Source: Geosiphon pyriformis uo1 (taxonomy: Eukaryota > Fungi > Glomeromycota). From it: a stretch of DNA of 64,000 nucleotides. This document shows positions 1 to 34,016 of this stretch, in pieces (position 1 is the first letter of the stretch; each line of letters begins with the position of its first letter). The position numbers and the translations under genes were made by a program. The stretch spans positions 54,248 through 118,247 of the forward strand of contig JAAOMT010000211.1 of the NCBI GenBank assembly GCA_016748015.1, read 5' to 3'. Below the pieces are notes generated by a model. The model searched no databases and was not told the origin of the DNA. It worked only from the letters and a program-made list of their open reading frames with translations.

Positions 1-151
1 ATGGAATGATTTTTTAGCAGACTGCATTACAAACCAGAAAAACTACACACTAATGTTGACAGCCTTTCAAGAATAAGACAATATTAATACCAACATTAAC
101 ACCAACAAAACACCAACAAACTTAACAGCAGAACAAATAACAAAATCAACA

Positions 152-1537
152 ATGGATCCAGAAAACTACAACAACATCAAAAACTATTTGGAGACTCTCA
201 CCATGTCAGAAATTTGGTTTTCAAGTGAAAAACATCAATTACAACACCAATCCAAACAATATTTTATACACCACAACAAAATTTATTACAAGAATCATAA
301 AAATCCAAACCAATCTTTCAGATTAGTACAAGAGAATGAAAAAGAAACAATTTTATACAACATGCACACAGATCCGTCTTCAGCATACTTGGGAAGAGAT
401 GGAACAATTCAAAGAACCCTTGAACATTATTTTTGGTCTCATATGCAAAAAGACATTCGACAATATGTAGAATCTTGTGATAGTTGTCAAAGAAGAAAAG
501 GAACTCACCCCACAGAATCTTTAAATCCAATCAAAGTTGGACAACCTTTTGACAGAGTTGGGATTGATTTAGTTGGACCATTATCTATTACAACCCAAGG
601 AAATTATTATATTGCAGTTGCAGTAAATTATCTCACCAAATGGCCTGAAGCTAGAGCCATTCAAAGAGCAGATGCAAAATCAGTAGCAAATTTCATCTAT
701 GAAGACATTATTTGTAGACATAGATGTCTAATTAAACTTTTATCTGATCAAAAAACACATTTTGTGAACAACTTGATACAAAAAATTTGTGAATGATTTA
801 ATGTCAAAAGACTTCTATCATCACCTTATCACTCTCAAACAAATAGACTTGTAGAACATTTCAACAGAATATTGTGTGAGTCTCTAGCCAAAGTCTCAAC
901 AGACTTTGAGCAGGAATGGAATATCTTTATTCCATCAGTGTTACTAGCATACAAAACGCTAAAACAAGATACTATGAAACACACACTATTTGATTTAACT
1001 TATAGAAGAACAGCAACATTACCAATTAATTTCATAGTGGAAACATATCCAGTGCAACCAATCAATGAAGAAAACTTTCAAGAAACACTCCAAAGAAGGG
1101 CCTACACTTTTCTTAGTACACTGGAAGGAAAAAGAAGAATAGCAGCAACTCATATTGAAAATTCCTAAGCTCAACAAAAAGAAAGACATGACAACAAATT
1201 ACCACCTATTACCAACGAATTTAAAGTTGGAAATAAAGTTCTCTTACACAAAATTAAGGCTGAAAAACAATAGAGTGGAAAATTTGAAAACAAATGGGAT
1301 GGACCATTTTATATTTACAAAATTCTAGACAATAGATCATATAAGTTAAGACTTGATGACAAAATACTAGCAAAAGTTGCACATGGAGACAGATTGAAAC
1401 ACTATCATTTCAGAAACAATCCTGAAACATTAATTCTACAGATTGGTACACATTCTTCTTTAATTAATCCTGAAGATATTCTCCGAAATTTAGAACTAAT
1501 AATTATAATAGAACAATAACCAAACTTAAACACTTAA
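152..1537 (+). pseudogene. integrase of copy A (internal stops)
   Basis: HHCC zinc domain (MHTD..SAYLG..CDSCQ), DDE core (GIDLVGPL, LLSDQ, LVEHFNR), C-terminal WDGPF module; ORFs 152-796 and 872-1168 are pieces of one frame. Confidence 0.93.
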
Positions 1538-6678: not shown

Positions 6679-8378
6679 TCAAAAAAATTTTATATAAAAT
6701 TTTTTTGCTATCTTAATTAATACAATAGATCAGATATTTGTTAAAATGCTATTCTATTTATAAAGCTTAAAGATCATTAAAACTTATGCTCTCTTTTAAA
6801 GAACTGAAATATTACCCAAAGCCAAATAAAAATTCAACAAATTTAAAAAACACTTTAAAACAACTTTACTGTAATGCTTCTAAAGTTTATTTAGAATATT
6901 AAACAATTTAACAGTCTTACTATCAAGCAAACTGTCAATTACTAGAACCAATTTTTCTATATTAATCTTTTTTATCATACCAAAAAATACATTATTATTT
7001 ACATAATTCAAAAACAAATATTAATAAGACCAAAAATTAGATATTTTTAAAAACACAAACTGTTTTTTTGTTCATTTTTCTATGATTTTATCGACCTAAA
7101 GCTTAATTTTATAAGATTTTACAACTAATTTTTCTTTAATTACCAAGTAATTTAAAACAACTTTGTAAAAAGGCCATTTTAAAATACTTTTTATTATTTG
7201 TTTTTGTCAAAGCAAAAATTTTTCATATGTTGTTTAATTGCCTTCCTAATTACTATATTTTCTAATGCCTTTAATTTATAATACTTAAATTTCTAATATT
7301 TTTTTTGATTATTGACAAATATTTAATAATGTTCTTTGATTTTATATTATTTTAAATCATACTAATAATTTTAGTCAACTAAATTTTGACAAAACATCCA
7401 AATTTTAAAAGATCTCCTAAATTTAATTTCTTTACAATTTTAACAATAAACAGCTCTAATTTAAAAAATTTTAATAATTATTTGTTTTTTAAACAATTAT
7501 ATTTACTATAATAATATTTACAAAACACTATATTGTTAGAATATACTATAACTTCTCTTAAAATTTTTCATATTGTTTTTAAATTACTACAATTTTTTGT
7601 TTTCTTAAACATACTTAAAATTATTAACAGTTTAGTAAAAAAACACTTTTTAAATTTTATTTACTTGAGCTTATTTACATCTTTTATTTTAAATTTTCAT
7701 TAATTTTTATTGATCTGTTTATAAATATTATTAAGATAAGCATCTAAAAAACCATTTAAGCTAACTAAAACTAAAACTGTCTTATAATTTGTATCAAAAA
7801 ATTCAAACACAATATCAACCTTATGGCTTGTAATTGCAAATGCTAAGTTCTTATTCACAAATATAAAATCTAACATTTTTTCAACACTTTTAGAATTGCT
7901 TTAAGTAAAAACTTTAACCAATAGATGCTTATTAAATGCTTTAATTAAACTCAGATCTAAACAAAACTTGAAATTTGCACTTTTTCTAGATCTATTTTTA
8001 TTGAAATTTCCACCCAAGATCACAAAAGTGCTAAAATTAACTACTTTGATAATAAAAAACTTAATTTTCAATGCTTGTTCAAATTTAATCTCAATAAAAA
8101 CACCAGCATACAATCTTAAGATTGTTATCAAAAATTTATTTTTAAATAAAAGATGAACTGAAATAATTTTGTCCAAAATTTTGTCAACTTTTGAGACATA
8201 ATAAACCAAAAAATTGTTTATAATTATAGTTATTTCAACACTAAAAAAACTTTTGTCTAAATTAGATATAAAAACTTGTACTTCTTTAAACTTATTCATA
8301 ATCTAAAACCTAATATTAGATTTCAATATAGTTTCTGTAATAATAAAAATCATATTATTTAAATTAACATTGTTATGG

Positions 8379-9363
8379 TATTATCAGACGAAATTAGAGA
8401 TATTATTTAGCATAAAATTATCTTTATAATTTTTATCATTAATTAGCATATACTATTGTTTCAAATTATCACTTATTATATTAGCAAAATATCCGAAATT
8501 ATTATTTAATTAATAACCCAATTTGTACATAACACAAATGTAATCTAATTGTGATGATCAATCATGCAATACCCCGAAATATGTAATATTCAAAAGTTTG
8601 CCAAAATTTGTAGAAATTCACCGAAATAATTGATAGTTCACCAAAATATCTAATAGTTCGTAGAAATAACTTGTAGTTCACCAAAATGTATCTTTAGTTC
8701 AGTAAAATTGTAGAAAAGAGCAAAGTTTAAGTTCATAGAATAGTATTATGACAAGTTGTATAAAAGAAGAGCTTCTCTCTTCGAGAAAATGTATCTTACT
8801 TCAGATTTAATAATTAGAACCATTCTTTATACAAAAAAACAAAATAAATATCAAATAAATTCGAAAAGCCAAATTCTTAATTATTTTCTTTGAAATTAAC
8901 CAATTCCTACTAACAGTTTAAAATTGATTAGCTACCAATTTCAGTACACTGTTAAAGCACTTCTAGGCCTGGATCTGAAATGACTTCCAGAAATTATCAG
9001 TTTTACTTTCTCTTTTACATTTTTTTCATTCTCTTTCTTTTCTTATTATAAATTATTTGGGTAGTCTACAGATGAGAATTCTTGTAGAAGAGTTGACTTT
9101 CACAGCAAAGTAACTACACATTTTTAGTGAGCTTCCAGATGAGCAATTCCTGGGAAAAAGTTAACATTTCCTACAATGTAACTATACAAAGTAACTGGCA
9201 CAGAATTGGCTATTCCACTTATAAGCCCAGTAGTTCAAATTATAAGAGATAATTTGAAGATAAATTCAGTTATCGGAGGTTCAAACACTTCCCATAATCG
9301 TGAATTAACAGTATTACAACAAACATACAAGAGCTAAGAAGAGACCAAAAACCTCCAGTAATA
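8379..9363 (+). repeat. 5' LTR of copy B
   Basis: Direct repeat of 17262-18238; followed by TTTGGTGCTC. Confidence 0.95.
8597..8765 (+). promoter_or_regulatory. U3 array of TTC-N3-GAA-like sites followed by a TATA box (TATAAAA 8759-8765)
   Basis: Sites start at 8597, 8607, 8617, 8637, 8657, 8677 and 8698; GTTGTATAAAA is conserved in all family-1 LTRs. Confidence 0.6.
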
Positions 9364-9381
9364 TTTGGTGCTCTTCCACAG
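9364..9381 (+). other. primer binding site (tRNA not identified)
   Basis: TT-TGGTGCTCT.. directly after the LTR, complementary to a tRNA ending ..GAGCACCA; same motif at 19803 and at 33049 (minus). Confidence 0.85.
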
Positions 9382-9407
9382 AAACAATACAGCAAAACAA
9401 CTTCAAA

Positions 9408-12400
9408 GTGGCAACCACACCAGATGCAACAACTCTAGAGTATTACCAATCAATTTACACCCACTGCAAACAAAAATTCAACATTCCAGACGAAATTGAA
9501 GTTGTTAAGAAATCAGTATACCAATACATTGAAAACTGTATCAACAATTATCTTTTTGGAAATTACAATATCTCAGAAGTTAGAAGCAACCTTTACAATA
9601 ATTTAGTACACTATTCACAGTTGGGAACTGAAGACCTTAATAGTGAAACACCTGCCACTTACTTTCAAGAACTTAATTTTAACATTATCAAATACTGTGA
9701 AGAAACATATCCAGTACAGTCTCAATACTCTATTAATTTTAAATCAGAGACAGAAACAAGCAACAAAGACAAACAAAAATTGAAGCAATACTCAAAAACC
9801 ACCCCAAATATCCCAATATTACCAAAAACAACTGCCAAACACTTACAAACACCTGAACAAAGAACCAGTTCAAAACTTCTACTTACTATCACACCTTTTC
9901 TAGCTTCACTTGCACAAGCACAAACACCTAATTCACCCTTAAATTGATTTGCAAGACTAGAAGATTTTACATCATCCAGAAGTCTTATTAGACAACAAGA
10001 ACCCCTTCAAACTAGTTCCAATCTTCTTGACTTTCTAGCTGAAAATTGAAGTGAACACTCTGAGACAGCAGTAAATGAAGAAAACGACTCTGAAGTATCC
10101 AAAGAAGAATCAATAAACAGTAAAAACAAAGAAGACAAAATGACAGCATATATCACAAAAATCCCTGAATTCAATGGAGAAGACATTGAGACCAGTCTCC
10201 AAGAATGGCTCGACCAAATTACTAAAGCTGGAGATGCAAATAGATGGAATGCTGCCAGAATGTTAAGAACAATTCCCTACTTTCTTAAAAGAACAGCAGG
10301 CGAATAGTTTGAAAACTTGACCACCCTTTTTAATGACTGGACAGCTTTCAAAACTGCTTTCTTAGAACAATTCACTGATAACAACACTTCAATCACTCTT
10401 TGAAATCATTTTCACAATATTAAACAAGAACCTTCTAAATCTGTTATGACTTATATTGAGAAATTCAACAAACTTCTCAGACAAATTTGCCAACTTGAAA
10501 CTAATAATTATTATTCTGATGCTCAAATCTTGGATCAATTCATCACTGGTTTAAAAGATAAACTGATTAAAAAGGTTCGCTCACATGCCTCAGAAGATTT
10601 AAACTCTGCCATTCAGCATGCAAAGAGATATAAAATGGCCATGGAAAAAGCCAATCATACAAAACTCGTAAACTTGGCCATTGAAGAAACCAGCTCAGTA
10701 GCTGAAGAGAAAATTGACCAACTCGCAAAAAAAGTCGAAAACTATTTCACCAACCAACAACAACAGCAACCCCAAAGATATCAATCACTCCAAAGACGAA
10801 ATCAAAACAACTTCACATCACCCTTTAATAACCAGTCTTAGAGTTGCCATTACTATAGAATTTCTGGCCACTGGAAAAAAAATTGCAGAAAGCTACAACA
10901 AGACCAACAAAATAGGAGTAATCAACGTTATCCTCCACCATAGCAATCTTATTATCAACCACCATCAGCTTACTATCCACCAAAGCCCCAATATTAAAGT
11001 AACTATTATCAGTTTGCCCCACAGCCAATCCAACAGCAATACCAACAACCACCCATACAACATTATCAAGTACCTGCTTGAAAATTGATTCTGCAAAATC
11101 AATTCACACCACAAAACCAATACCAAGTAAACAACAATAGGATTATTTTAAACAACCAATTAGTTCCCCAAAATTCAGCTCAACCAAGACCCAACCACTA
11201 TCATACTCAACCTAGTTATCTTATGATGCTAGAAGAGCAGAATTTTTACCATACTGCACTCTCAGAAAGTAGAGCTGCAGCACAATGACAAAACTCTTCC
11301 TATATTCCTACCACAATCTCACCAGCCAAAATTGCTGAAAATGCCAACCTTTCAGATATATTTCCTTTTGAATTTGAAGCAAATGAATCACCATTCTTGC
11401 TTAGCAATGCAGCGGCTAATGAGCAAAAAGCCATCACTGCAATGTACACAGAAGCTGAAGTAGAAGAAAAGCCAATTCGCTTGATTCTAAACAGTGGATC
11501 CGCCAAAAGTATTATTACACATCAATTGATGCAACAGCTAAAAAGAAACATTGACCGACCAGCTCAGACAATCATTGTCACTACTGATGGCATGAAAAAG
11601 ACTCCAGTAGGAGAGATTGACAACTTCCCATTCACAATTGATGGAATCATTATTCCAGTCAAAGTTCTGGTCATGGATGCTCCCCAATACCAAGCTCTTG
11701 TCAGAAACAATTGGCTCCAAAAAGCCAATGCTAATCTGAATTGGGAGACACAAGAGTTAACAATCTCCTACCAAAGACAACACGTCTGAGTATCTGCCAC
11801 GTGTGGTACATTCAACAAACACTCTGAAAAAGCCCTGGCTTTTGAATTCGAACCAGAAGAAGAAAAACCTATCATTGAAACATTTATGGCACTTGGATCA
11901 ACCTCCAATTGGGCTGATGAAACTGAACAACAGTATTTTTCAACATATAATTCCCTTGAAACAAAAGAACTAGTAACACCCAGATGGAATGTTTCCTATT
12001 CAAAACCAGAACCACAAAAACAACGCTCTTATATTTCACTCAAATGCAAAAATTGTCACAAGAAACTCTTATCAATAGGAGCCTGCATTTCATCTGAAAA
12101 AGAATATGAAAATCATACTTGTTATTATTGCAAGGCTTGCCACAGAGAACGATGGAGCCATCTAATAAAAAGAAGTGAAAAATGGGACAACACCTCTTGT
12201 TTGACTTGTGGAAATATGCTACCAGAAGAATGCAATTGGATTGATGTAGCAATGAGAGGAGAAGTCTGTAATCAGACCTGCCAATATGCTTTATCAATTT
12301 CAGAAAAAGTCAAAAAAAGAACACCTTTTAATGTGGCATACAACAGTGCTTTCAACAAACTTTATCACTACCCCCATGATGCTAAAATAATTTTTGACCT

Positions 12401-15038
12401 AGCAATGACATTAATTAATAGAGCTACCAAAGAAGATGTCTGTCAAATAAAGGAAGCAGAATATATTGAATATACATTGGAATTAGCTGAATTTGATTAT
12501 GAAGATGAAGTAGAAGTATACCATAAAATCGCAAGTTATACCTACTCGATCCAAGAAGCTCAAATTCAATGATTAGAGCAAATGAACATTAAATTATGTA
12601 AGGAGTGTATAATGCCATACGACAAACAATGGTGTCCTGAATGCTATGTCCTTAGCATTCCATTACCCAGTAAAAGTAACAAATATAAAATCAAATTTGG
12701 TGAATCTGAAGCAACAGAAGAAATTAAAACAACACCCATCTATCTTATCAAAAATCAGCCTGCTTCACAACTCAAATACTTCAACAACAATGGACAAGGA
12801 ATAAAGTCTGAAAAAGCCCACGAATTTGATGCTGAATACGATCTAAGATATCCAGGAAAAGATATCCTTACTCTCAAATCTAAATTGTTTACAAAAATCA
12901 ACCTCAAAATTGCCCTTGAAATTCCACCAGAGGCAATGGTCCAAATCGCTTCACAATCATCATTGGCGAGCAAAAAAATTAATGTTAGAAGAGGAATCAT
13001 AGATGTGGAATATACAGGAGACATTACAATCATGTTACAAAATGAAACCAATAAACCTTTTCAAATTGAACATGCCAAAAAAATTGTTCAAGCTATTTAT
13101 TTACCCTTAATCAACATTTCGGGTTTATAATTAGTCAATCAAAGAGAACTATTGGGAAAAAATGAAAGAGAAACCCAAGGTTTTGGTTCAACTAGATAAT
13201 TCACAGTTCCAGTAAACATAGCCCTTAATGAACAGAAAGAATCTCACCAGATTTTACGACTTCCACAACCAATTACCATTTCACCCTTTGGAGAACACTC
13301 TGAAATTTACATTTGTGGAAAGCCAACAACCACACAACAAATTTTTGAGTCCAACGAACAAATCTGCTTGGAATATAATATCTCGATTCCAAACATTTAT
13401 ATTCCAGAAGGAACAAAAAAAATCCGAGTTACTTTTTACAATCCCAACAATTTCCCCATAGTTTTATTAAATAACTTAGAAATTGGAGTTATTCACAGTA
13501 ATATCTTTTAACAAGAATTACCCCAAACAGTTCCCAATTTCTCAGAAATCATTAAACATTTACTACCAAAAATCAACCCAAATCCCAGTTCTGAGAACTA
13601 CCATGTTGTCATAGAAAAACTATTTTGAATCAACATGAGACAACTTGAACCACAATAACAGAGCCAGCTCAAAGAGCTAATTGCAGAATTTGCTGATATT
13701 TTTGCTAAAAACAACAATGACTTAGGAAGAACTGATGTGGTTCAACACCAAATCTATACAGGAAATGCCAAACCAAAGTGACAACAAGCCTACTGAGTTG
13801 TCCCAGAAAGTCACCAATTTATCCAAGAAGAAGTACAACAAATGCTTAACAATGGGCTTATTCAACCATTAATAAGTCTATGGGCCTCACTTGTAATCCT
13901 AGTTAAGAAGAAAAATGGAAAGATATGATTTTGTGTTGATTATTGACAACTCAACAGTGTCACTATTAGAGATCCCTACTCTCTTCCCCGAATCAATAAC
14001 ATGTTAAATGCTCTTGGAAAATCCAAATACTTTTCAACACTAGATCTAAAAAGCGAATACTGGCAAGTTGCCATGGATTCCAAAGATCATCCCAAAACAG
14101 CATTCACCACTCAAAAAGGAAATTATGAGTTCAACGTAATGCCTTTTGGATTATGCAATGCACCAGCAACATTCCAAAGACTTATGGATGTTGTTTACAA
14201 AGGCCTCTTTTGGAAATCAGTAGTTGTCTATCTTGATGATACTGATGTTTATTCACCATTTTTTGAATTACACTTAAAACACTTGCGCGAAGTTTTTCAA
14301 CAATTATGGAAAGCAGGATTGAAACTGAACATCAAAAAATGCTACTTTGGAAAAACGAGTCTGGCCTTTTTTGGTCACATTGTTAGCAAAAATAGAATTA
14401 AACCAGACCCCAGAAAAATCAGCACTGTCAAGAACTTTAAGACTCCACAAAATATCACAGAATTGAGAGGATTTATTGGATTAGCATTCTATTACCAAAA
14501 ATTCATCAAAAGATTCTCAAAAATCGCAAAACCCCTCAACCAGCTTACTACTAAAAACGTCAAATACAAATGGATAGAAGAACACCAAAAAGCTTTTGAA
14601 ATTCTCAAAGAAAAGCTAACAACAGCTCCAATTTTTGCCTATCCAGACTTCAATAACCGATTTTGACTAGCTACAAACGGTTCTTACACTGCCTTTGGTG
14701 CCATCTTATCACAATTAGATGACAACAGAAATGAGCGAGTAATTGCTTATGCTAGTAGAACATTAAAACCAGCCGAGAAAAACTACCCTGCCACAGAACT
14801 AGAAACAGCAGCCGTAATTTGGGCCCTACACTACTTTAATCTTTACCTCAAACCCAAAGAATTCGATATTATCATTGATAATATTGGACTCAAATGGCTT
14901 CAAAACAAAAACACTCAGCTGAATACCAAACAAATCTGATGGACAGGATTTTTAGCCAACTACTGATACATTGTACATCACAAACCAGGAAAACTCCACA
15001 CCAATGTTAATTGTCTCTCAAGAATGAGACAAGATTAG
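9408..15038 (+). pseudogene. Gag-PR-Cys-rich-dUTPase-RT-RNaseH polyprotein of copy B
   Basis: Capsid-like KIPEFNGED/ILDQFITGL, decayed CCHC knuckle, protease IL(N/D)SGSA, RT MPFGLCNAPATFQ and YLDD, RNaseH; many premature stops. Confidence 0.93.
12770..13197 (+). pseudogene. dut: dUTPase domain within pol of copy B
   Basis: Motifs across copies: AGYDL, ASRSSLA, GGVIDAGYTGDI, KIAQ, RGTQGFGST. Confidence 0.92.
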
Positions 15039-15084
15039 AACATAAAAACAACACTCATTTGAATTAACAACAAAACAACAAACA

Positions 15085-16453
15085 ATGAATCCCAAAAACT
15101 ACAACAATCTTAAAACAATATCTGGAGACATTAACAATCCCAACAGATTGGTCCTCAGATGAAAAACATTGGTTACAACAACAAGCCAAACAATACTTCT
15201 TACACAACAACATTATTTATTATCAAAACTTCAGAAACCCAGACAATTCACTCAGATTAATACAAAAACATGAAAAAGAAACCATTTTATATAATATGTA
15301 CTCAGACCTTTCATCAGCACACCTAGAAAAAGACAGCACTACCCAGAGAACACTAGAATATTATTTTTGGTCTCAAATAAGAAAAGACATTCATGAATAC
15401 ATTAAGGTTTGTGATAGTTGTCAAAAAAAAGGAGGAACTCACCCTACAGAACCTTTAAATCCAATCAAAGTTAGACAGCCTTTTGACTAAGTTGGTATCG
15501 ATTTAATCGAACCACTCCTTATTACAAACCAAAAAAACTGTTATATTACAGTAGCTGTAGACTATCTTACCAAATGGCCTGAAGCCAGAGCCATTCAACG
15601 AGCAGATGTAAAATCAGTAACAAATTTCATCTATGAAGACATTATTTGTAGACATAGATGCCCAATAGAACTTTTATCTGATCAAGAAACACATTTCATA
15701 AACAATTTAATCCAAAAAATTTGTGGATGATTTAATGTCAAGAGACCATTATCTTCATCCTACCATCTACAAACAAATAGACTTGTAGAATGTTTCATTA
15801 GCCAAAGTCTCAACTGATTTTGAGCAAGAATGAGATCTCTTTATTTCATCAGTGTTACTAGCATATAGAACACTAAAACAAGATACCACAAAACACACAC
15901 CATTTGATTTAACTTATGAAAGAACACAGCAATATTATCAATTAGTTTCACTGTGGAAACATACCCAACACAATCAATTGATAAAAACAATTTCCAGGAA
16001 ACACTACAATGAAGAGCCTACACTCTGCTTAGCATGTTGAAAGAAAAACAACAAATAGCAGCCACCCACATTAAACACTCCCAAGCTCAACAAAAAAAAT
16101 GACATAACAACAAATTGTCTTCAGTTACCAATAGATTTAAAATTGAAAACAAAGTTCTTTTATACAAAACTAAAGCTGAAAAACAATGGAGTGGAAAATT
16201 TGAAAATAAATAGAATAGACCATTTTTTATCCATGAAATCCTAGACAACAGATCATACAAGCTAAGACTTGATGACAAAATCCTAGCAAAAGTTGCACAT
16301 AGAGATCGTTTGAAACACTATAATTCTAGAAACAATTCTGAATCATTAATTCCATAAATTGGTACACATTCCTCTTTAATCAATCCCGAAGATATTCCCC
16401 AAAATTTAAAACCAATAGTTGTCATTGAACAACCTCTCAACTTGAACACTTAA
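15085..16453 (+). pseudogene. integrase of copy B
   Basis: ATG AAT CCC AAA AAC TAC start; HHCC and DDE relics; ends ..LNLNT*. Confidence 0.9.
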
Positions 16454-16573: not shown

Positions 16574-17293
16574 ATGACTATTCCTCAAAACATTCAATAA
16601 TTATTCCAAAAACTAATGCTAGCTTTAAAGACAATATCCAAATTATCCATTACTGTTACTAAAAACCATATTAATTATACCCAAACAGAAGTAGTTACAA
16701 ATTTAGCCCCAAATGCACATAAATATTATCTGTATAAGAGGAACACAAGAAGTTCTTCTGGAATTCATCTGCCAGAACTTTTAAAGCTTGCTTTAAGAGA
16801 AAACTTAATGCTCACTCCTATTAGTATTCCACCAAATGCTACTATTCAACAAAAACTTCAACTGTGTCTTAATGAAGAAAACTACGACTATACTCCAATA
16901 TATAGATATTTCTACATTGGAAAAACATTTCACAAACAAAAACGGAAGCTTACAGCAGCAAACCTCACAAAAAAAGCTATTCTGAAACAACTCCACAACG
17001 AATTCAAGACAACAGCTGGACCTACAAACAGTCATTATAAACTAAGAGCTGCTCTTAGACTTTATGATCTATTCTACATCTGTGAAAATGTTCTACAAAA
17101 CCCAATTTTACAGCCTTTGAAGATTTAATACATTGGAAAGCTCACAGAACTGAAATTTTAACAATTTTCAGACCAAATTTCTTCAATAATTTTGGATTAT
17201 TATCTGGAAATTACAGACAATACTTGGACTTTGATGGAGCTCAGTCTTGAGGAGAAGGTTATGTTACCAGACAAAATTAGAGATATTATTTAG
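16574..17293 (+). pseudogene. accessory ORF3 of copy B
   Basis: MTIPQNIQ..MLALKT..YRYFYIGK..HYKLRAALRLYDLF; homologous to ORF3 of A. Confidence 0.82.
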
Positions 17294-18238
17294 CATGAAA
17301 TTATTTTTATAATTTCTATCATTAATTAGCATATACTATCATTTCAAATTATTACTTATTATATTAGCAAAATATTCGAAATTATTATTTAATTAATAAC
17401 CCAATTTGTACATAACACAAATGTAACCTAATTGTGATGATCAATCATGCAATACCCCGAAATATGTAACATTCAAAAGTTTGCTGAAATTTGTAGAAAT
17501 TTGCCAAAATAATTGATAGTTCACTAAAATATCTAATAGTTTGCAGAAATAACTTGTAGTTTGCTAAAATGTATCTTTAGTTCAGTAAAATTGTAGAAAA
17601 GAGCAAAGTTTAAGTTCATAGAATAGTGTTATAACAAGTTGTATAAAAGAAGAGCTTCTCTCTTCGAGAAAATGTATCTTACTTCAGATTTAATAATTAG
17701 AACTATCCTTTATACAAAAAAACAAAATAAATATCAAATAAATTCAAATTTTTAATTATTTCCCTTGAAATTAACCAATTCCTACTAACAGTTTGAAATT
17801 GATTAGCTACCAATTTCAGTAGACTGTTAAAGCACTTTCAGGCCTGGATCCAAAACAACTTCCAGAAATCATCAGTTTTATTTTCTCTTTTACATTTTTT
17901 TTATTTTCTTTCTTTTCTTATTATAAATTATTTGAGTAGTCTACAGACGAGAATTCCTGTAGAAGAGTTAACTTTCACAGCAAAGTAACTACACATTTTT
18001 AGTGAGCTTCCAGATGAGCAATTCCTGGAAAAAAGTTGACATTTACTACAACATAACTATACAAAGTAACTGGCACAGAATTGGCCATTTCACTTATAAG
18101 TCCAGCAGTTCAAATTATAAGAGATAATTTGAAGATAAATTCAGTTATCAGAGGTTCAAACACTTCCCATAATCGTGAATTAACAGCATTACAACAAACA
18201 TACAAGAGCTAAGAAGAGACCAAAAACCTCCAGTAACA
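17262..18238 (+). repeat. 3' LTR of copy B
   Basis: PPT GAGGAGAAGG upstream; TGTTACCAG...CCAGTAACA; followed by TSD ATGG. Confidence 0.95.
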
Positions 18239-18821: not shown

Positions 18822-19802
18822 TGTTATCAGTAGAATTTTAGCTATTAATTAACATGAAATTACTCTTATAATTTCTATTATTATTTAGCATATATTATTA
18901 TTATTTTGATTATCACTTATTATTTAATCAAATTATTAAATATTATTACTCAATCAATAATTCGATTTGTATTCTAGAAATTAAGATGATCAAATTGCAC
19001 AATACTCTGAACCATTTAACATAGTCAAAATTCGCCAAAATTAATGAAAATTGGCCGAAATAATTAAATAGTTCAGTGAAATAACTTGTAGTTTGCTGAA
19101 ATATATCTTTAGTTCACCCAAATTATAGCAAAAAGAAAAGTGCAAGTTCAAAGACTAGTACTACAACAAGTTGTATAAAAAAAGAGCTTTTCTCTTCAAG
19201 AAAATGTATCTTCTCATAGTATTTTATCATAGTACTTTACTTTAAATATATTAATTGGAACAAATCAACTTTTACACATTCAAATAAAAATTAAATATTT
19301 GAAAACCAAATCCTTTGATTATTGTACTTGAAATTTTTTTAACACAACTAACATTTCGAAATTGATTAGCTACTAATTTCAGTAATCTGTTAGTGACTTC
19401 AGGCCTGGATAGAAAACGTTTCCTTTGATAAAAATATTATTTCTTTTACATTTCTTTTATTTTATTTTATTTTCTTTCTTTTTCTTATTATAATTATTAA
19501 ATTAGCCTACAGACAAGATTCCTGTAGAAGAGTTGACTTTCACAGCAAAGTAACTACACATTTTAGTGAGCTTCCAGATGAGCAATTCCTGAGAAAGAGT
19601 CAATGTTTACTACAATATAATTATATAAAGTAATTGACAAAGAATTGGCTATTCTACTTATAAGCCCAGCAGTTCAAATTATAGGAAATAATTTGAAGAT
19701 AAATTCAGTTACTGGAGATCTAACTACTTCTTAAAAACGTGAATTCTCAGCAAATCAGCATTAACAACATTCAAGAAAAGAGACCAAAAACCTCCAGTAA
19801 CA
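18822..19802 (+). repeat. 5' LTR of copy C
   Basis: TGTTATCAG...CCAGTAACA followed by the PBS. Confidence 0.94.
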
Positions 19803-19847
19803 TTTGGTGCTCTCCCACAAAAATAACACAGCAACAACAAATTCAAA

Positions 19848-22800
19848 GTGGTGACCACACCAAACACAACAACTTTAGAGTATTATCAGTCAATCTACAC
19901 ACACTGCAAGCAAAGATTTAACATCCAAAATGGAATTGAAATTTTCAAGAAATCACTATACTAATACATTGAAAATCATATCAACAACTATTTTTTTGAA
20001 AACTACAACATTTCAGAAGTTAGAAACAACCTCTACAATAATTTAGTATACTATTTACAATTAGAAAAAGAAGACCTGAACAGTAAAATACTTGCTACTT
20101 ATTTTCAAGAACTTAATTTTAACATTATTGAGTATTGTAAAAAAAAATACCCAGTACAGTCTCAATACTCTATTGATTTTGAATCAGAGACAAAAACAAA
20201 CAACAAAGGCAAACAAAAATTGAAGCAATACTCAAAAACCACTCCAAACACTTTAATACTACAAAAAACAACTGCCAAACACTTAAACAAGGAACCAGTA
20301 TTAAATTACCACTTTCTATTACACCATTTTCAATTTCACTTGCTTAATCACAAACACCAAGTTCACTATTTAATCATTTCTCTAGACCAAAAGATTTCAG
20401 TTACCTAGAAATTCTACTTAACAGAACAAACCAATATTAATAAGTGCTAATATTATTGATTACTTACAGAAAAACGAAAGAAATCATTCAGAGAGTCTGG
20501 AAAGTGAAGAAACTGAATCAGAACAAGAAAAAACTACAGAAAACAAAGAAATGGCAACTGCTTATATTGCAAAGATTTCAGAATTTACTGGTGAAAATAA
20601 TAATACCAGTCCTTAAGAATGGCTTGACATAGTTCAAAAAACAGGAGATGCAAATGGTTGGACTGCAGCAAGAATGCTCAAAGCAATCCTATACTTCCTC
20701 CAAGGAACTGCAGAAGAATGATTTGAAAATTTAGGAGAACCATTTGAAAACTGGCAAGCATTCAAAGATGCTTTTCTACAACAATTTACTGACAACAACA
20801 CATCCATTACTTTTTGTAATTGCTTTCACAATATCAAACAAGAAACATCTGAAACTGTTATAATTTATCTGGAAAGATTCAACAAACTTCTTCAACAAAT
20901 TTGACAATTGGAAACCAATGAATACTATTCTGATGCCCAGATTCTGGATCAGTTTATAGCAGGATTAAAGAACAAATTAATCAAGAAAGTTTGCCCACAT
21001 GCACCAGAAAACTTAGCAACAGTCATTAAACATACAAAAAACTATGAAATGGCTATGGAAGAAGCAAATCACACCAAATTTGTCAGCCTAGCTATTGGAG
21101 AAACCAGTTCAATAGCTGAAGAGAAGATAAACCAACTCACAAAAAAGGTTGAAAGCTACTTCACAAACTAACAACAACAGCAATAACAACCACAAAAATA
21201 TCAACCTCCACAATGATACAACCAAAACAATATTGAATTACCATCTAACAACCAACCTCAAAATTGTTATTATTGTGGAATTCTAGGACATTGGAAACGA
21301 GATTGTAAGAAATTACAAAGAGACCAACAAAACAAGAGTAATCAGCATTATTCGTTATCACAAAAATCTTATTATCAATCTCCACCACCAACTTATTATC
21401 CACCAAGACCACAAAATTAAAACAGTTATTATCAACCAGCCCCACAACCAATTCAGCAACAATACCAGCAATCTTTACCCACTCAGCAATATCAAACACC
21501 ATCCACTCAACAATATCAAGTACCAACCAGAAGATTGGTTTAACATAATCAATTCACACTCCAAAATCAATTTCAGAGTAACAACAACAGAATCAATCCA
21601 AATAATTAGTTGGTTTCTCGAAATTCTGATCAGCAAAGACCCAATTACTATTACACTTAACCCAGTTACCTTACAATGCCTAAAGAATCGAATTTTTAAC
21701 AACCTGCACTTTTTGAAGGTAAAGTTGCAGCACCAAGATCAAACTCTTCCAACAATACTATTTCATCAGCCCAAATTGCCCAAAATGCCAATCTTTCAGA
21801 TATATTTCCATTCGAATTTGAAGCAAATGAATCACCATTCTTGCTTAGTAATGCAGCAGCTAATGAACAAAAAGCTATTACTGTCATATACACTAAAGCT
21901 ACAGTAGAAGAAAAACCCATCCGATTAATTTTAAACTGTGGATCAGCTGAAAGTATTATTACCTACCAGTTAATGCAACAGCTTCAAAGAACTGTTGACA
22001 AACCAGCCCAAACTGTAATTGTTACAGCAAATGGTATGAAAAAAACACCAGTAAGAGAAATTGACAATTTCTCATTTACTATTGATGAAATCACCATTTT
22101 AATCAAAGTTTTAGTCATAAATGCATCTCAATACCAAGCTCTGGTCAAAAATGATTGGCTTCTTAAGGCCAATGTAAACTTGGACTGAAAAACTCAAGAA
22201 TTAAAAATCTCATACCAAGGACAATACACCATAGTATCTGCTATTTGTGAAACTTTCAACAAACAATCAGAAAAAGCCCCAGTATTTGAATTTGAAAAGG
22301 AGAAAGAAATGCCACTCACTGAAACCTACATGGCTCTTGGATCAACATCTAATTGGGTTGAGGAAACAAAACAAGAGATTTTTGAAAAATCAAAAGGATA
22401 GAAGAAAGTTAGATATTCCACACCAGAACCACAAAAAAAACCACCATATATTCCACTAAAATACAAAGATTGCAAAAAAAAGCTTTTATCTATAGGAGCC
22501 ATATTTCTTCAGAAGAGAAATATGAAACTTGCACTTGCTACTTCTGCAAAGCATGCCATAGAGAACGATTTGAATCTCCAAAGAGAAGTAGAAAATGAGA
22601 CAACATATCTTGTCTCACATGTAGAGATATGCTACCAGAAAAATGCAACTGGATTGATGTTGCAATGAGAGGAGAAGTATGTGATCAAACCTGTCAATAT
22701 GCTCTATCAATTTCGAAAAAAGTTAGAAGAGAAACACCATTTGATGCAACATACAACAGTGCTCTTAATAAACTTTACTACTATCCTTATGATGCTGAAA

Positions 22801-24170
22801 TGATCTTTGATTTAGCAATAGCTTTAATTAATAGAGCCACACAGGAAGATGTCCACCAAATAAAAGAAGCTGAGTATATTGAATACACAATAGAATTAGC
22901 CAGATTTAACTATAAAGATGAGGTAGAAACATATCACCAAATTGCAAGCCACACATATCCAACACAAGAAGCTCAAATTCAACAATTAAAGCAAATGAAC
23001 ATTTAATTGTGTGAAAAATGCATCATGCCTTGTGATGACAAATGGTGTCCAGAATGTTATGCTCTTAGCATTCCTCTGCTCAGTGAAAATAACCAAGAAG
23101 AAATCAAATTTGGGAAACCTGAAACAAAGAAAGAAATCACAACAACACTAAGCTATCTTATTGAAAACCAGCCCACTATACAACTCAAATACTTTGACAA
23201 CAATGGGCAAAGAATAAAACCAGAAAAAGCCCACAAAATTAATGCCAGATATGACCTCAGATATCTTGGCAAAGACACTTTGGTTCTCCAACCAAAGTCC
23301 TTGACAAAAATCAATCTTAAAATTGCTCTTGAAATTCCACTTAGAGCAATGATTCAAATTGCATTCAGATCATCATTGGCAAGCAAAAGAATCAATATTA
23401 GAGGAGGAGTCATAGATGCAGAATATACTGAAGACATTACCATCATGTTACAGAATGAAACAGACAAACCATTTAGGATTGAACATGCTGAGAAAATTGC
23501 CCAAGCAATTTACCTACCCTTAATCAACATTTCGGGTTTACAATCAGTAAAGAACAGAGAACAAGAGGAAAAAAGTGAAAGAGGAACTCAAAGTTTTGGT
23601 TCAATTGGACAATTTACAGTGCCAGTAAACATAGCTCTCAATGCACAAAATAAATCTCACCAGATTCTTCAACTTCCTCAACCAATTACCATTTCACTTT
23701 TTGGAGAACATCATGGAATTTACACCTGCTCAAAACCCATCACTACCCAACAAATCTTTGAATCCAATGAACAAATCTGTTTGAAGCATGAAATCTCAAT
23801 TCTAAACATTTATATTCCTAAAGGAATGAAAAAATTTTGAGTTATATTCTACAACCTCAACAATTACCCTATTGTCTTATTAAATGAATTAGAAATTGGA
23901 ATCATATATAATAACATTTTCCAAAATGAAAACCCTTAAATTGTCTCTAATTTCATCGAAATTATAAGACATACTCTACTTCCAAATCCAAACACCATTC
24001 CTACTACTAAAAACTACTTTTTGGAAGAAAAACTCTCTCGAATTAACATGGGTCCCTTAGAATCCCAACAACAAAGACAATTAAAACAGCTAATAGCTGA
24101 ATTTGCAGATATTTTTGCAAAGAACAATAATGACCTTGGAAAAACTGATATTGTTCAATATCAGATCCAC
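19848..24170 (+). pseudogene. gag-PR-Cys-rich-dUTPase part of copy C
   Basis: CYYCGILGHWKRDC knuckle, protease, dUTPase in ORF 23007-23840. Confidence 0.92.
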
Positions 24171-25131
24171 TGTTACCAGAGGTTTTTGGTCTCTTTTCTT
24201 GAATGTTGTTAATGCTTGTTTTGCTGTGAATTCACGTTTCCAGGAAGTAGTTGAACTTCCAATAACTGAATTTATCTTCAAATTATCTCTTATAATTTGA
24301 ACTGCTGGGCTTATAAGTGGAATGGCCAATTTCGTGCCAGTTACTTTGTGTAGTTACGTTGTAGTAAATGTCAACTTTTTCCCAGGAATTGCTCATTTGG
24401 AAGCTCACTAAAATGTGTAGTTACTTTGCTGTGAAAGTCAACTCTTCTACAGGAATCTCGTCTGTAGACTACCCTAATAATTATAATAAAAAAAATAAAA
24501 AAATAAAAAAAATGTAAAAAAAATGTAAAAAAAATAGGATTTTATCAAGAGAAACGTTTTCTATCCAGGCCTGGAGTCACTAACAGTTTATTGAAATTAG
24601 TAGCTAATCAATTTCAAAACGTTAGTTGTGTTGAGAGAATTTCAAGTGTAATAATTTAAGAATTTTGTTTTTCGAATATTTAATTTTTATTTGATTTTGT
24701 AAAAAGTGATTTGTTTCAATTAAGACATTTAAAGTAAGATACTATGGTAAGATACTATGAGAAGATACATTTTCTTGAAGAGAGAAGCTCTTCTTTTATA
24801 CAACTTGTTGTAGTACTAGTCTTTGAACTTGCACTTTTCTCTTTGCTACAATTTGGGTGAACTAAAGATACATTTCGGCAAATTTACAAGTTATTTCACT
24901 GAACTATTGATTATTTCGGCGAATTTTAACTATGTTAAATGGTTCAGGGTATTGTGTAATTTGATCATCTTAATTTCTAGAGTACAAATCGGATTATTGA
25001 TTGAGTAATGATATTTGATAATTTGGCTAATTTAATAAGTAATAATCGAAATAATAATAATATGCTAATTAATAATAAGAATTATGAAGATAATTTCGTG
25101 CTAATTAATAGCTAAAATTCCACTGATAACA
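24171..25131 (-). repeat. 3' LTR of copy D
   Basis: Adjacent PPT (GAAGAGGAGA on the minus strand). Confidence 0.94.
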
Positions 25132-25819
25132 TAATCTCCTCTTCAAGACTGAGCTCTGTCGAAGTCCAAGCACTATTTGTCATGTTAAGATAGTGGTCCA
25201 AAATAATTGAAGTAATCTGGTCTGAAAATTGTTGAAATTTCAGTTCTGTGAGCTTTCCAATGTATTGAATCTTTATTGGATGGAGTATTGGATTTTGTAG
25301 AACGTTTTCACAAGTATTGAATAAATCATAGAATCTAAATGCTGCTCTAAGTTTGTAGCAAGTGTTTGTTGATCCAGCTGTTGTCTTAAATTCATTGTGA
25401 ATTTGTTTTTGTATAGCCTCAGGAGTGATGTTGGTTGCTTCAAGCTCCAGTTTTCATTCATAAAGTGTTTTTCTAATATGAAAATATATATATATAAGAA
25501 TATGTTCATTGTTCTGTTTATTGAGGAATAGTAGAAGTTTTTGTTGCATTGTGGTATTTGGTAAAATGTCAATAGGGGCCATTAAAAGGTTTTTTTTTAG
25601 TGCTTGCTTCAAAAGTTCTGGTAACCTATTTCCAAAATGACTTCTTGTTTTTTTTCTATAAGGGTGATAGTTTTGAGAATTATTTACTATTAGGGCTGTG
25701 GTTTCTTTCTGAATGTAATTAATTTGACTTCCATTAATCATTATGGATAAGTCAGGAAGTGTTTTCAAAGCTAACATTAATTTTTGGGATATTTGTTGAA
25801 TATTTCGGGAAATAATCAT
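25112..25819 (-). pseudogene. accessory ORF3 of copy D
   Basis: MIISRNIQQISQKLMLALKTLPDL..; near-identical to ORF3 of C. Confidence 0.82.
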
Positions 25820-25986
25820 GATAAAAATGACTAACAAAAAGTTTGAAAAAGAATAAAGAAAATTGTTTTTTGGATATAGGGTTTTTATTTGTTTTTGGTT
25901 TTTAAATGTTTCTTTGTAATTATTTACTGTTTTTGATTTATGTTTTGTGAGTTATTAAAAAAAGATTATTGTAAAATTATGTTGAA

Positions 25987-27372
25987 TTAAGTGTTCAAGT
26001 TTGGCTGTTGTTCTATTATAATTATTGGTTCTAAATTTTGGAGAATATCTTCAGGTTTAACTAAAAGGGAATGTGTACCAATTTGTGAAATAAATAATTC
26101 AGGATTGTTTCTAAAGTAATAGTGTTTCAATCTATCTCCATGTGCAACTTTTGCTAGTATTTTGTCATCAAGTCTTAACTTATATGATCCATTGCCTAGA
26201 ATTTCGTGAATATAAAATGGTCCATCCCATTTGTTTTCAAATTTTCCACTCCATTGTTTTTCAGCCTTAGTTCTGTGTAAGAGAACTTTATTTCCAACTT
26301 TAAATTTGTTGGTTATGAATGGTAGTTTGTTGTTATGTCTTTCTTTTTGTTGAGCTTGGGAATGTTTAATATGAATTGCTGCTGTCCTTTTTTTTCCTTT
26401 CAGTGTATTAAGAAGAGTGTAGGCCCTTCTTTGGAGTGTTTTTTGAAAGTTTTTTTCATTAATTGGTTGTACAGGGCATGTTTCTACTGTGAAATTAATT
26501 GGTAATGTTGCTGTTCTTCTATAAGTTAAATCAAATAGTGTGTGTTTCATAGTATTTTGTTTTAGTGTTCTGTATGCTAGTAACACTGATAGAATAAAGA
26601 TATCCCATTCCTGCTCAAAGTCTGTTGAGACTTTGGCTAGAGATTCACACAATGTTCTGTTAAAATGTTCTACAAGTCCATTTGTTTGAGAGTAATAAGG
26701 TAATGATAGAGGTCTTTTGACATTGAATTATTCACAAATTTTTTGTATCAAGTTGTTCACAAAATGTGTTTCTTGATCAGATAAAAGTTCAATTGGACAT
26801 CCATGTTTACAAATAATGTCTTCATAGATAAAATTTGCTATTGATTTTGCATCTGCTCTTTGAATGGCTCTAGCTTCAGGCCATTTGGTAAGACAATCTA
26901 CTGCAACTGCAATATAACCATTTCCTTGAGTTGTGATAGATAATGGTCTGACTAAATCAATTCCAACTTTGTTAAAAGGTTGTTCAACTTTGATTGAATT
27001 TAAAGGTTCTGTGGGGTGAGTTCCTTCTTTTCTTTGACAATTATCACAAGATTCTATATATTGTTAAGTGTCTTTTTGCATTTGAGGCCAAAAATAATGT
27101 TCAAAAATTCTTTGTATTGTTCCATCTCTTTCCAAGTGTGCTGAAGAAGAATCTGTGTGCATGTTGTATAAAATTGTTTCTTTTTCATTCTCTTGTACTA
27201 ATCTGAAAGATTGGTTTGGATTTTTATGATTCTTGTAATAAATTTTGTTGTGGTGTATAAAATATTGTTTGGATTGGTGTTGTAATTGATGTTTTTCACT
27301 TGAAAACCAAATTTCTGACATGGTGAGAGTCTCCAAATAGTTTTTGATGTTGTTGTAGTTTTCTGGATCCAT
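25987..27372 (-). pseudogene. integrase of copy D
   Basis: ORFs 27064-27372 and 25987-26652; KWDGPFYIHEILGNGSYKL module; no chromodomain. Confidence 0.93.
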
Positions 27373-27436
27373 TGTTGATTTTGTTATTTGTTCTGCTGTT
27401 AAGTTTGTTGGTGTTTTGTTGGTGTTAATGTTGGTA

Positions 27437-30400
27437 TTAATATTGTCTTATTCTTGAAAGGCTGTCAACATTAGTGTGTAGTTTTTCTGGTTTGTAATGC
27501 AGTCTGCTAAAAAATCATTCCATTGAGACTGTTTGGCACTTTATCTTTTTTTATTTTTATTGAGTCATTTGAGGCCAATATTGTCAGTTATGATGTCAAA
27601 TTCTTTTTCATTCTTCAGGTATTGTTGAAAGTATTTGAGGGTCCAAATAATTGCAGCAGTTTCTAGTTCTGTTGAGCCATATTTGAGTTCTGTTGGCTTG
27701 AGTGTTCTACTAGTATAGGCAATGACTTGTTCCTGGCCATTTTCATTTAATTGTAATAGAATAGCACCAAAAGCTATGTGTAAAGCATTAGTGGCTAGTT
27801 GGAACTGTTTGTTGAAATCTGGATAAGCATGAACTGGGGCTGTTGTTAATTTTGTTTTGAAGGTTTTAAAAGCTTTTTGTTGTTCTTCTGTCTATTTGTA
27901 TAGCACATTTTTGTTGATAAAATAATTGAATGGTTTGGCAATTTTTAAGAATTTTTTTATAAATTTCCGATAGTAGGAGGCTAATCCTACAAATTCTCTT
28001 AGTTTTGTGGTATTTTTGGGAGTTTGTAAGTCTTTGACAGCACTAATTGTTTTAGGGTTTGGTTTGACTCTATTTTTGCTAACTATGTGTTTAAAAAAAA
28101 TTAAGCTTGTTTTTCTAAAGTGACATTTCTCAATATTCAACTTTAATTCTGCTTTCTGTAATCATTGAAAAACTTTTTGCAGGTAAATAAAATGGGCTTC
28201 AAAGCTTGGTGAGTACACATCAGTGTCATCAAGATAAACAACTACTGATTGCCATAAGAGTCCTTCATATACAACATCCATGAGTCATTGGAATGTTGCT
28301 GGTACATTGCAGAGTCCAAAAAGCATAATATTGAACTCATAATTTCCTCCTTGGATGGTGAATGCTGTTTTGGGTCTATCTTTTGGGTCCATTTCGACTT
28401 GCCAGTATCTACTTTCTAAGTCTAAAGTTGAGAAGAACTTGGCTTTTCCTAAAGCATCTAACATGTCATCAATTCTTGGAAAAGAGTAGGCATCTCTAAT
28501 TGTGACACTATTCAATTGTTAATAATCAACACAGAATCTGATTTTTCCGTTTTCTTTTTGACAAAAACTACTGATAAGGTCCATAGACTTTTTGATAGTT
28601 AAATCAATCCGTTATTGAGCATTCTTTGGACCTCTTTTCTAATAAATTGGTGGCTAGCAAGTGGAACTCAATAGGCTTGTTGTTGTTTTGGTAAAGCATC
28701 TCTTGTATGGATTTGGTGTTGAACAATATCCGTTTTTCCAAGGTTATTGTTGTTTTTTGCAAATATATCTGCAAATTCAGCTATCAATTGTTTCAATTGT
28801 TTTTGTTGTTGGAGTTCCAAAGGACCCATGTTGATTCAAAAGAGTTTTTTTTCCAAAAGGTGGTAGTTTTCAGTGGTAAAAATGATGTTTGGATTTGGAA
28901 GTAGTGTATGTTTTATAATTTCGATGAAATTAGAGACAATTTGAGAGTTTTCATCTTGAAAAATGTTACTGTGTATGATTCCAATCTCTAGTTTGTTCAA
29001 TAAGACAATGGGGTAATTATTGGAGTTATAGAATATAACTCGAAATTTTTTCATTTCTTTGGGAATATAAATGTTTGGGATTGAGATTTCAAGCTTCAAA
29101 CAGATTTGTTCATTGGATTCAAAGATTTATTGAATGGTGGTGGGTTTTGAGCAAGTGTAAATTTCGTGATGTTCACTAAAAGGTGAAATGGTAATTGGTT
29201 GGGGAAGTTGAAAAATCTGGTAAGATTTATTCTGTATATTGAAAGCTATGTTTATTGGAACTGTAAATCATCCAGTTGAACCAAAACCTTGAGTTCCTCT
29301 TTCACTTTTTCCCAATTGTTCTCTGTTTTTAACTGATTATAACCTCGAAATGTTGATTAGGGATAGGTAAATTGCTTGGGCAATTTTCTCAGTATGTTCA
29401 ATCCTAAATGGTTTGTCTGTTTCATTTTGTAATATAATGGTAATGTCTCCAGTATATCCTGCATCTATAACATTTCCTTTAACATTGATTTTTTTGTTTG
29501 CCAATAATGATCTGGATGCAATTTGAATTATTGCTCCAGATGGAATTTCAAGAGCAATTTTGAGATTGATTTTTGTCAAAAACTTTGGTTGGAGAACCAA
29601 AGTATCTTTTCCTGGGTATTTTAAGTCATATCTAGCATCAATTTTGTGTGCTTTTTCTGGTCTAATTTCTTGGTTATGGTTGTCAAAATATTTAAGTTGT
29701 AGAGGTGGTTGCATTTTAAGAAGATAAATGAGAGTGGTTGGTAGTTCTTCTACCAGTTCAGATACTCCAAATTCGATTTCATTTTCATCATTTTCCTCTG
29801 ACAGGGGAATGCTAAGAGCATAGCATTCTGGACATCATTTGTTATCACAAGACATGATGTATTCTTCACACAATTAAATGTTTATTTGCTCTAATTGTTG
29901 AATTTAAGCTTCTTGAGTCGGATATGTGTGGCTTGCAATTTGGTAGTAGGTTTCTACTTCATCTTCATAATCAAATCCAGCTAATTTCATAGTATACTCA
30001 ATATATTCAGCTTCCTTCATTTGGCAGACATCTTCTTGGATGGCTCTATTGATCAATGCCATTACTAGGTCAAAAATCATTTCAGCATTATGAGGGTAGT
30101 GGTAAAGTTTATTGAGAGCACTGTTGTATACTGCATCAAATGGTGTTCCTCTTCTGACTTTTTCTGAAATTGATAGAGCATATTGACAGATTTGATCACA
30201 TACTCCTCCTCTCATTGCAATATCAATTCAGTTACATTCTTCTGGTAATGTATCTCCACATGTGAGGCAAGGAGTGTTGTCCCATTTTCCACTTCTTTTT
30301 GAAGATCCAAATCGTTCTCTATGGCATGCTTTGCAAAAGTAACAGGTATGAGTTTCATATTCCTCTTCTGGAAAAATACATGCTCCTATTGATGAAATTT

Positions 30401-33004: not shown

Positions 33005-33049
33005 TTTGAATTTGTTGTTGCTATGTTATTTCCATAAGAGAGCACCAAA

Positions 33050-34012: not shown

Positions 34013-34016
34013 TCAC

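Follow-up and report, generated by a model that had tools for sequence, protein, structure and literature searches.

A separate integrase reading frame in decayed Ty3/gypsy-type retrotransposons of Geosiphon pyriformis and in their relatives

Long terminal repeat (LTR) retrotransposons and retroviruses normally bring integrase into the particle within Gag-Pol. In the Ty3/gypsy group, the Pol polyprotein normally ends with the integrase domain (PMC3248453; PMC12440569). Foamy viruses make Pol apart from Gag and package it through the genomic RNA (PMC7828637), and in Ginger1 transposons a gypsy-type integrase of about 400 residues stands alone, with a GPY/F motif and an extension on the N-terminal side of the zinc finger, an Ulp1 domain being a mark of their transposases (PMC2836005). 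Reinitiation after a long open reading frame (ORF) requires special signals, and the overlap geometries AUGnnSTOP and UAAUG are listed for stop/restart translation in calicivirus, influenza B virus, and a fungal victorivirus (PMC3542737). Here, we analyzed a stretch of 64,000 nt from Geosiphon pyriformis uo1 (assembly GCA_016748015.1, contig JAAOMT010000211.1, positions 54,248 to 118,247), hereafter the window. Self-comparison identified four copies (A, B, C, and D) of one LTR element family in the window. The best reading is that these copies are decayed Ty3/gypsy-type LTR retrotransposons in which the integrase is a separate cistron with a conserved AUG. No LTR retrotransposon with a separate integrase ORF was described in a full-text literature search, which had Repbase and most subscription papers outside its scope, and the split-integrase variant of Ty3/gypsy is real and apparently unpublished. 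A lineage that makes integrase separately needs other means to start, dose, and package the enzyme.

The RNase H/integrase junction in the window and in relatives

In all four copies, the frame that includes reverse transcriptase (RT) and RNase H ends at a stop codon, followed by a short spacer and the integrase frame, as follows.

85..151, + strand: copy A pol stop TAA (85-87) and 64-nt spacer, identical to copy D here
152..1537, + strand: copy A stand-alone integrase ORF, decayed
15036..15038, + strand: copy B pol stop TAG, ending the gag-protease-dUTPase-RT-RNase H frame; common to B, C, and D
15039..15084, + strand: copy B non-coding spacer of 46 nt, without AUG and without AG
15085..16453, + strand: copy B stand-alone integrase ORF, decayed, with a 1-nt insertion near 15116 and more indels and stops
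35298..35358, + strand: copy C pol stop TAA (35298-35300) and 58-nt spacer with no G
35359..36744, + strand: copy C integrase ORF, start codon ATA (35359-35361), decayed
27373..27439, - strand: copy D pol stop TAA (27439-27437) and 64-nt spacer
25987..27372, - strand: copy D stand-alone integrase ORF of 461 codons with two internal stops and the H2C2, catalytic core, and GPF/SH3-like regions

The first-pass annotation had described these stops, and they were confirmed as TAA or TAG at 85-87, 15036-15038, 35298-35300, and 27439-27437. The spacer lengths of 64 (A and D), 46 (B), and 58 nt (C), each 1 mod 3, were likewise confirmed, as were an integrase frame open across the A/D and C spacers and a single TAA in that of B; the spacers of 145, 120, and 173 nt reported between integrase and a third frame, ORF3, fit the stop and start positions checked. 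The stops are present in all four copies, but the copies are not independent: positions 1-373 of the window equal positions 27523-27151 of copy D letter for letter, an RNase H deletion included, with about 10% divergence beyond, and the junctions therefore number three rather than four. Conversion or an assembly join would explain this block. Since C and D are 87.4% identical, their spacer frames are partly shared by descent, and slippage of CAA units together with shared descent can account for the agreement of the three spacers mod 3. The ATG said to start the integrase was present except in copy C, which reads ATA.

A total of 59 gag-pol codon positions are a stop in at least one of B, C, and D, and only two stops, at 10995 and 15036, are common to all three, with about 0.17 shared stop triples expected from independent decay. 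The window alone thus suggests an ancestral pol stop without proving it. The earlier claim of ancestry holds through the relatives, which show the same split, and not through the sharing of the stop among the window copies, because the second TAA at 10995 is likewise found in B, C, and D.

The relatives were collected at the protein and DNA levels. A search limited to proteins of 253-807 residues, and hence blind to fusions, returned 568 proteins. Among the 120 listed, residue 1 aligned to the initiator Met of the window integrase in 99, and 94 began with MD or ME. For DNA context, 573 soil and sediment metagenome contigs matched, and the best 80 were kept as loci; the RNase H end and the integrase were both present in 45 of these, and all 45 were split. 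In the other 35, tblastn found no RNase H end, and a motif search gave five more usable gaps (-1, 98, 91, -1, and 49 nt), which were left out of the frame counts, as were the genome-collection loci (L081-L135; eight fused outgroups and three more damaged). One relative (L027) has a gag-pol frame of 1621 codons and a separate integrase of 424 residues, and four long loci carry repeated ends, as expected of collapsed LTRs. In a protein library without length limits, the 14 best near-full-length single matches among the 150 listed (664-444 bits) were all unfused; 13 of these begin in the N-terminal Met region, and one is truncated. The highest-scoring fused protein reached 413 bits. These results indicate that the integrase is very probably a stand-alone ORF in these elements, which was one of the two readings offered by the first-pass annotation.

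Fused proteins were searched for among those of 749-2135 residues. The close matches were five Glomeromycota gene models of NCBI and one metagenome protein (P0124), the rest being 29-43% identical. The five gene models join RT and integrase in one protein, in which either the last RNase H motif or the N-terminus of the integrase is missing or a long unrelated insert is present. Two observations weigh against a separate integrase with a conserved AUG. P0124 is a true natural in-frame fusion and falls inside the split clade. In addition, the G of the ATG is found at only about one quarter of the depth in C-like contigs; these, like the D-like copies, are short contigs of one DNA run, possibly the source of the window itself, and give no independent support.

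Gap frames, start sites, and junction types

The first-pass annotation held that the integrase always lies in the +1 frame. This is the case in the three window spacers and fails outside them, as relatives use all three frames. The gaps range from -20 to about 550 nt; after removal of five damaged loci from the 45 (L032, L065, L054, L069, and L070), frames 0/1/2 were found in 9/17/14 of 40 loci. The counts were 8/16/13 (p = 0.27) after three near-duplicates were also dropped (L042, L049, and L075) and 8/11/10 (p = 0.79) in the 29 junctions with gaps above 10 nt. The slight excess of frame 1 arises because overlapping junctions cannot be in frame 0. Additionally, only 2 of 31 spaced junctions had an integrase frame free of stops between the pol stop and the AUG, and an in-frame stop lay within 60 nt upstream of the integrase AUG in 62 of 68 loci.

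These counts bear on a programmed +1 frameshift at the RNase H stop that would yield a Pol-integrase fusion. The reading has in its favor the common 1 mod 3 of the window spacers, two of them open in that frame; in addition, the indels listed for similar contigs at the D junction comprise a 3-nt CAA unit only. Relative to copy C, the eight longest contig pieces that span its spacer have net length changes of 0, -1, -2, -3, -3, 0, -4, and 0 nt, so that five retain the frame; however, three deviate by non-multiples of three, and the 12 indels listed for C-like contigs (13 more occur) are single bases within the spacer. Moreover, the sister of the window elements in the integrase, RT, and combined trees (L003) has a gap of 24 nt, and two near-identical relatives (L048 and L049) have gaps of 163 and 162 nt. 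Tabulating spacer length mod 3 across many copies, as the first-pass annotation had proposed, thus gave no constant frame, and a +1 frameshift of the Ty1, Ty3, or antizyme type is ruled out at the family level, the frame being neither fixed nor open; we give it next to no weight. A similarly minute probability applies to the view that pol is normally fused and that decay or assembly error produced the stop and the spacer. The window copies are dead, with CpG at 0.16 of expectation, C>T and G>A as the dominant changes, and the stop-bearing codon positions noted above; the identical A/D block and the five fused gene models also speak for this view. Relatives with long open frames, such as L027, are nevertheless equally split, in 45 of 45 loci, which rules the artefact out, and the fused gene models, judged from their sequences, probably reflect predicted introns that bridge the gap.

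The integrase start codon lies in a distinct context. A purine at -3 was found in 65 of 71 loci and a G at +4 also in 65 of 71, compared with 54% and 33% of internal ATGs (n = 1869), respectively. In 24 spacers of 20-170 nt there were 3 AUGs, against 23.7 in base shuffles and 15.6 in dinucleotide shuffles, and none of 1000 dinucleotide shuffles was as AUG-low. AUG density was about 14-39 per kb in RT-RNase H, 4 per kb in its final 30 nt, and 0-3 per kb after the stop. Furthermore, AACGG was enriched on the sense strand of the spacers (15 occurrences versus 0.9 in shuffles; 9 of 24 loci, including L001, L004, L005, L007, L014, L048, and L061), as was TTAAC. The window spacers contain 0-2 G each and have a predicted folding energy of 0, that is, they are unstructured. 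The G-poor, CAA-rich leader described in the first-pass annotation is thus present in the window, but it is not a general trait, as spacers with G or with structure are found in many relatives, and its extent in the window may be exaggerated by G>A decay.

The junctions fall into three types. In the first, stop and start overlap or touch (-20 to +2 nt; 9 of 40 clean junctions); three of these are AUGnnSTOP and one is UAAUG, and the L055 junction reads ATGAATAA. The second has AUG-poor spacers of 24-163 nt, some with AACGG or TTAAC, and includes the window. The third, found in one sub-lineage other than that of the window, has a structured RNA motif of 37-39 nt that ends 1-38 nt 5' of the integrase AUG. 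The start codon thus lies at or close to the upstream stop in 9 of 40 relatives and farther from it in the window (46-64 nt) and in the other 31.

The motif folds into a 3-4-bp stem, a conserved purine-rich bulge of 12 nt, a 6-bp stem, a bulged A, and a 2-bp stem with a triloop. Among 23 distinct sequences, 98.9% of the cells pair and 6 of 12 pairs change on both sides; the covariation score was reached by none of 500 shuffles, and slid controls pair at up to 50%, a comparison that favors the motif since its structure was drawn from the same 23 sequences. The model matched 29 loci at E < 0.05 among 92 sources (24 of the 29 had been used to build it), once each and always on the sense strand (e.g., L024:3352-3388, L027:5193-5229, and L039:4464-4500, with 26 more loci). 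A search of the window elements gave no match, and most loci beyond one integrase sub-clade lack the motif; L053 carries it with an integrase of another sub-clade. Searches of Rfam 15 gave no match at E up to 1 for the motif in 10 loci and two chance matches at E 4-5 for 121 bases, so that this is a covarying RNA motif without an Rfam counterpart. In most motif-bearing elements, pol extends 240-340 residues past RNase H. This extension is acidic and Cys/His-rich (L027:4357-5163, L039:3497-4438, and about 20 related loci) and has no match in Pfam.

Routes to the integrase start codon

We consider termination-reinitiation to have about an even chance of being the route to the integrase AUG. Ribosomes that reach the RNase H stop would terminate there, and a fraction of the 40S subunits would remain on the genomic RNA. 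At the overlapping junctions of relatives these would restart on the spot, and at spaced junctions of the window type they would scan 24-160 nt to the first AUG. The outcome would be less integrase than RT, with no protease cut required, and the free integrase would join the particle by binding RNA or Gag. Reinitiation is preferred because it joins most simply an integrase with its own AUG, the lack of a frame constraint, the stop/start contact in one sub-lineage, and the AUG-poor spacers in another. In its favor too, one relative (L079) has an extra ORF of 170 codons (9483-9992), without a Pfam match, whose start lies 29 nt past the pol stop and whose end is 5 nt from the integrase AUG. LINE-1 elements reinitiate across a spacer of about 60 nt.

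Several observations weigh against this route. The window gaps of 46-64 nt exceed those of known stop/restart cases, and UGGGA, the upstream motif of reinitiation of the termination upstream ribosome-binding site (TURBS) type, was found no farther than 110 nt from the integrase AUG in just 2 of 37 loci. The spacers are depleted in AAT and GTA to the same degree as in ATG (z = -5.0, -4.0, and -4.0), and the depletion of AUG may therefore be partly compositional; AACGG could be a promoter signal. In six relatives (L011, L015, L029, L033, L042, and L079), the gap measures 192-547 nt and places 2-10 AUGs between the pol stop and the integrase, which plain scanning would not get past. In addition, an in-frame UGA-CUA lies between protease and RT in 9 of 26 loci (L011:2498, L012:2882, L058:3290, L079:7930, and L080:780; also L015, L033, L042, and L062). 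The UGA-CUA context is leaky, and this is likely a readthrough site; with RT behind it, few ribosomes would reach the pol stop. At the same position, L073 has UGA-CCA, and L024, L053, and L061 have a frame change instead of UGA. A frame change is found between gag and protease in L017.

It is possible, though less probable than reinitiation, that the integrase is read by ordinary scanning from its own subgenomic RNA. This RNA could arise from a promoter inside the element, through RNA processing, or, with lower likelihood, by splicing to an acceptor close to where RNase H ends. The strong start context and the AUG-poor spacers are just as suited to a 5' leader, AUGs become scarce from 30-60 nt upstream of the pol stop onward, and the enrichment of AACGG and TTAAC would also agree with this route. 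It is the better fit for the long AUG-rich gaps and for an RT behind a leaky stop, and foamy virus Pol is made from a spliced subgenomic RNA (PMC7828637). Splicing is opposed by the spacers without AG (9 of 27) or without YAG (13 of 27), with copies B and C among these, so that an acceptor inside the spacer is lacking in about half. No YAG is invariant in the RNase H end either, the commonest being present in 22 of 37 loci and tracking codon choice. A subgenomic RNA also gives no reason why stop and start touch at 9 of 40 junctions. Internal entry of ribosomes on the genomic RNA, by way of unstructured A-rich spacers or of the structured RNA in the other sub-lineage, appears improbable. The single sense-strand motif just 5' of the AUG and the unstructured window spacers agree with it, but the restriction of the motif mostly to one integrase sub-clade apart from the window and the lack of room for an entry site at overlapping junctions speak against it. 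To our knowledge, a motif of 37-39 nt is also far below the size of internal ribosome entry elements.

Whether it were started by reinitiation or from a subgenomic RNA, the integrase would be untethered to Gag. A broader proposal, which we put forward only tentatively, is that the lineage is polycistronic with interchangeable integrase starts (overlap, AUG-free scanning spacer, or the motif as an initiation, RNA-processing, or integrase-loading element), that integrase is loaded by RNA, and that such a free-standing integrase could be an intermediate linking gypsy elements to Ginger1. Intact relatives offer short natural junctions with an overlap, a spacer, or the motif, as in L055, L001, and L027, respectively, for the study of reinitiation after a long ORF in fungi. 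The split also concerns annotation, as gene models in Glomeromycota either merge both ORFs, probably by predicting an intron across the gap, or enter the integrase as a transposase on its own.

Element features, phylogeny, and comparison with known systems

The elements in the window and the parts of copy B are as follows.

1-3339: copy A, partial element
8371-18238, + strand: copy B, element
18822..38586, + strand: element C, interrupted by element D; LTRs 91.2% identical, ATAA target duplication
24171..34012, - strand: element D, nested in C; LTRs 95.4% identical, CCAC/TCAC flanks
8371..9363, + strand: copy B 5' LTR (TG...TA), followed by a TGG primer-binding-like site
9378..15038, + strand: copy B single decayed frame for capsid, protease, Cys-rich insert, dUTPase, RT, and RNase H
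16574..17302, + strand: copy B ORF3 with its own ATG, end approximate
17249-17258, + strand: copy B purine tract 5' of the 3' LTR
17262..18238, + strand: copy B 3' LTR (TG...CA), 93.8% identical to its 5' LTR

Each of B, C, and D has a direct LTR pair. A TGG a few bases 3' of the 5' LTR and a purine run 5' of the 3' LTR are as expected of a primer-binding-like site and a polypurine tract; no target-site duplication was recognizable at B. Copy B is about 76% identical to C and D, and its gag-pol frame has its first clear Met at 10140. Pfam domains occurred in the order Retrotrans_gag, Ty3_capsid, RVP_2, RVT_1, RT_RNaseH, Integrase_H2C2, and rve, with ORF3 behind the integrase. The dUTPase domain lies between protease and RT (12816-13193 in copy B; also in D) and is preceded by a Cys-rich insert of no known family (copy B; also D). 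A relative (L070) has, within about 130 residues upstream of RT (RT match from 902), what we take to be a Nudix-box-like motif at the place of the dUTPase. The TAA at 10995-10997 lies in a Q/Y/P-rich gag end and may have arisen by decay in parallel or be a genuine stop of gag that undergoes readthrough. The stop after the dUTPase (13197; in B and D) was considered as a readthrough site and treated as decay, as C has CAA there.

Among named proteins, the closest was a gene model of Geosiphon pyriformis (77% over 35% of the query); other close named eukaryotic matches were from Rhizophagus and Cetraspora, and all named matches belonged to Glomeromycota. Stand-alone integrases also occur in Rhizophagus irregularis, an arbuscular mycorrhizal fungus (P0020 and P0067). 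The family is abundant, because LTR sequences make up 41.2% of the G. pyriformis genome (PMC11952901) and 4215 contigs of one DNA run match 901 bases of copy D. Elsewhere in the window, we found a degenerate 1.9-kb inverted repeat (67%) at 57150-59016 in very AT-rich DNA and a decayed minus-strand element with a type-1 RNase H domain (PF00075) at 59826-64000.

The ORF3 proteins of relatives form a family of 25 proteins of about 140-200 residues (e.g., L002:2284-2712), and those of the window and L003 (2456-3145) share a separate type of 230 residues. Integrase-ORF3 gaps range from -11 to about 310 nt across loci, and ORF3 had no match in Pfam. A feature search with the ORF3 of a relative gave mixed low-count matches (the first 0.94, with 150 shared features) and was not used. 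Scans of viral contigs for relatives gave no match.

Trees were built from search hits only and contain no curated Metaviridae references. In the combined RT and integrase tree, 31 rows labelled split, among them the gene model P0123 labelled so by assumption, formed one clade with the fused P0124 (SH-like approximate likelihood-ratio support, SH-aLRT, 92), apart from 19 fused gypsy-type pol rows. The best combined tree needs two changes, with P0124 inside the clade, and strict monophyly of the split elements was neither established nor rejected (approximately unbiased test, p-AU 0.158). In the integrase-only tree, five further fused proteins fell within the same group, so that the edge of the split clade is unsure.

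Like Ginger1, the window elements have a stand-alone gypsy-type integrase with an extension before the zinc finger and GPY/F (PMC2836005), whereas they differ in having gag, RT, and direct LTRs in place of terminal inverted repeats; no OTU or Ulp1 domain, as borne C-terminally in Ginger1, was found on the window integrase with Pfam. Two stand-alone proteins bearing Ulp1 matched the family profile at 444 and 390 bits. A nesting of Ginger1-like proteins in the split clade was unsupported, with the Ulp1-bearing proteins outside in an unrooted quick tree. Near the family lie further stand-alone integrases (P0341, P0379, and others; 413-635 residues), which are Ulp1-bearing Ginger1-like or N-terminal-Met proteins. 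That a free-standing integrase links gypsy elements to Ginger1 transposons is a lead only.

The viral termination-reinitiation systems of victorivirus, calicivirus, influenza B virus, and pneumovirus (PMC3542737) share with 9 of 40 relatives a downstream AUG at or near the upstream stop; they differ in the scarcity of UGGGA here and in the gaps, which are 46-64 nt in the window and hundreds of nucleotides in others. By analogy with foamy virus (PMC7828637), we propose that an enzyme made apart from Gag would need RNA-mediated packaging. Foamy virus makes its whole Pol from a spliced RNA, whereas here the integrase alone is separate and many spacers lack an acceptor. With canonical Ty3/gypsy elements (Metaviridae), the window elements share LTRs with TG...CA ends, a primer-binding-like site, a purine tract, the order capsid-protease-RT-RNase H-integrase, and an integrase with H2C2, core, and GPY/F regions. 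They differ in that the integrase of the window is a separate ORF and the signals for ribosome dose in relatives sit between protease and RT.

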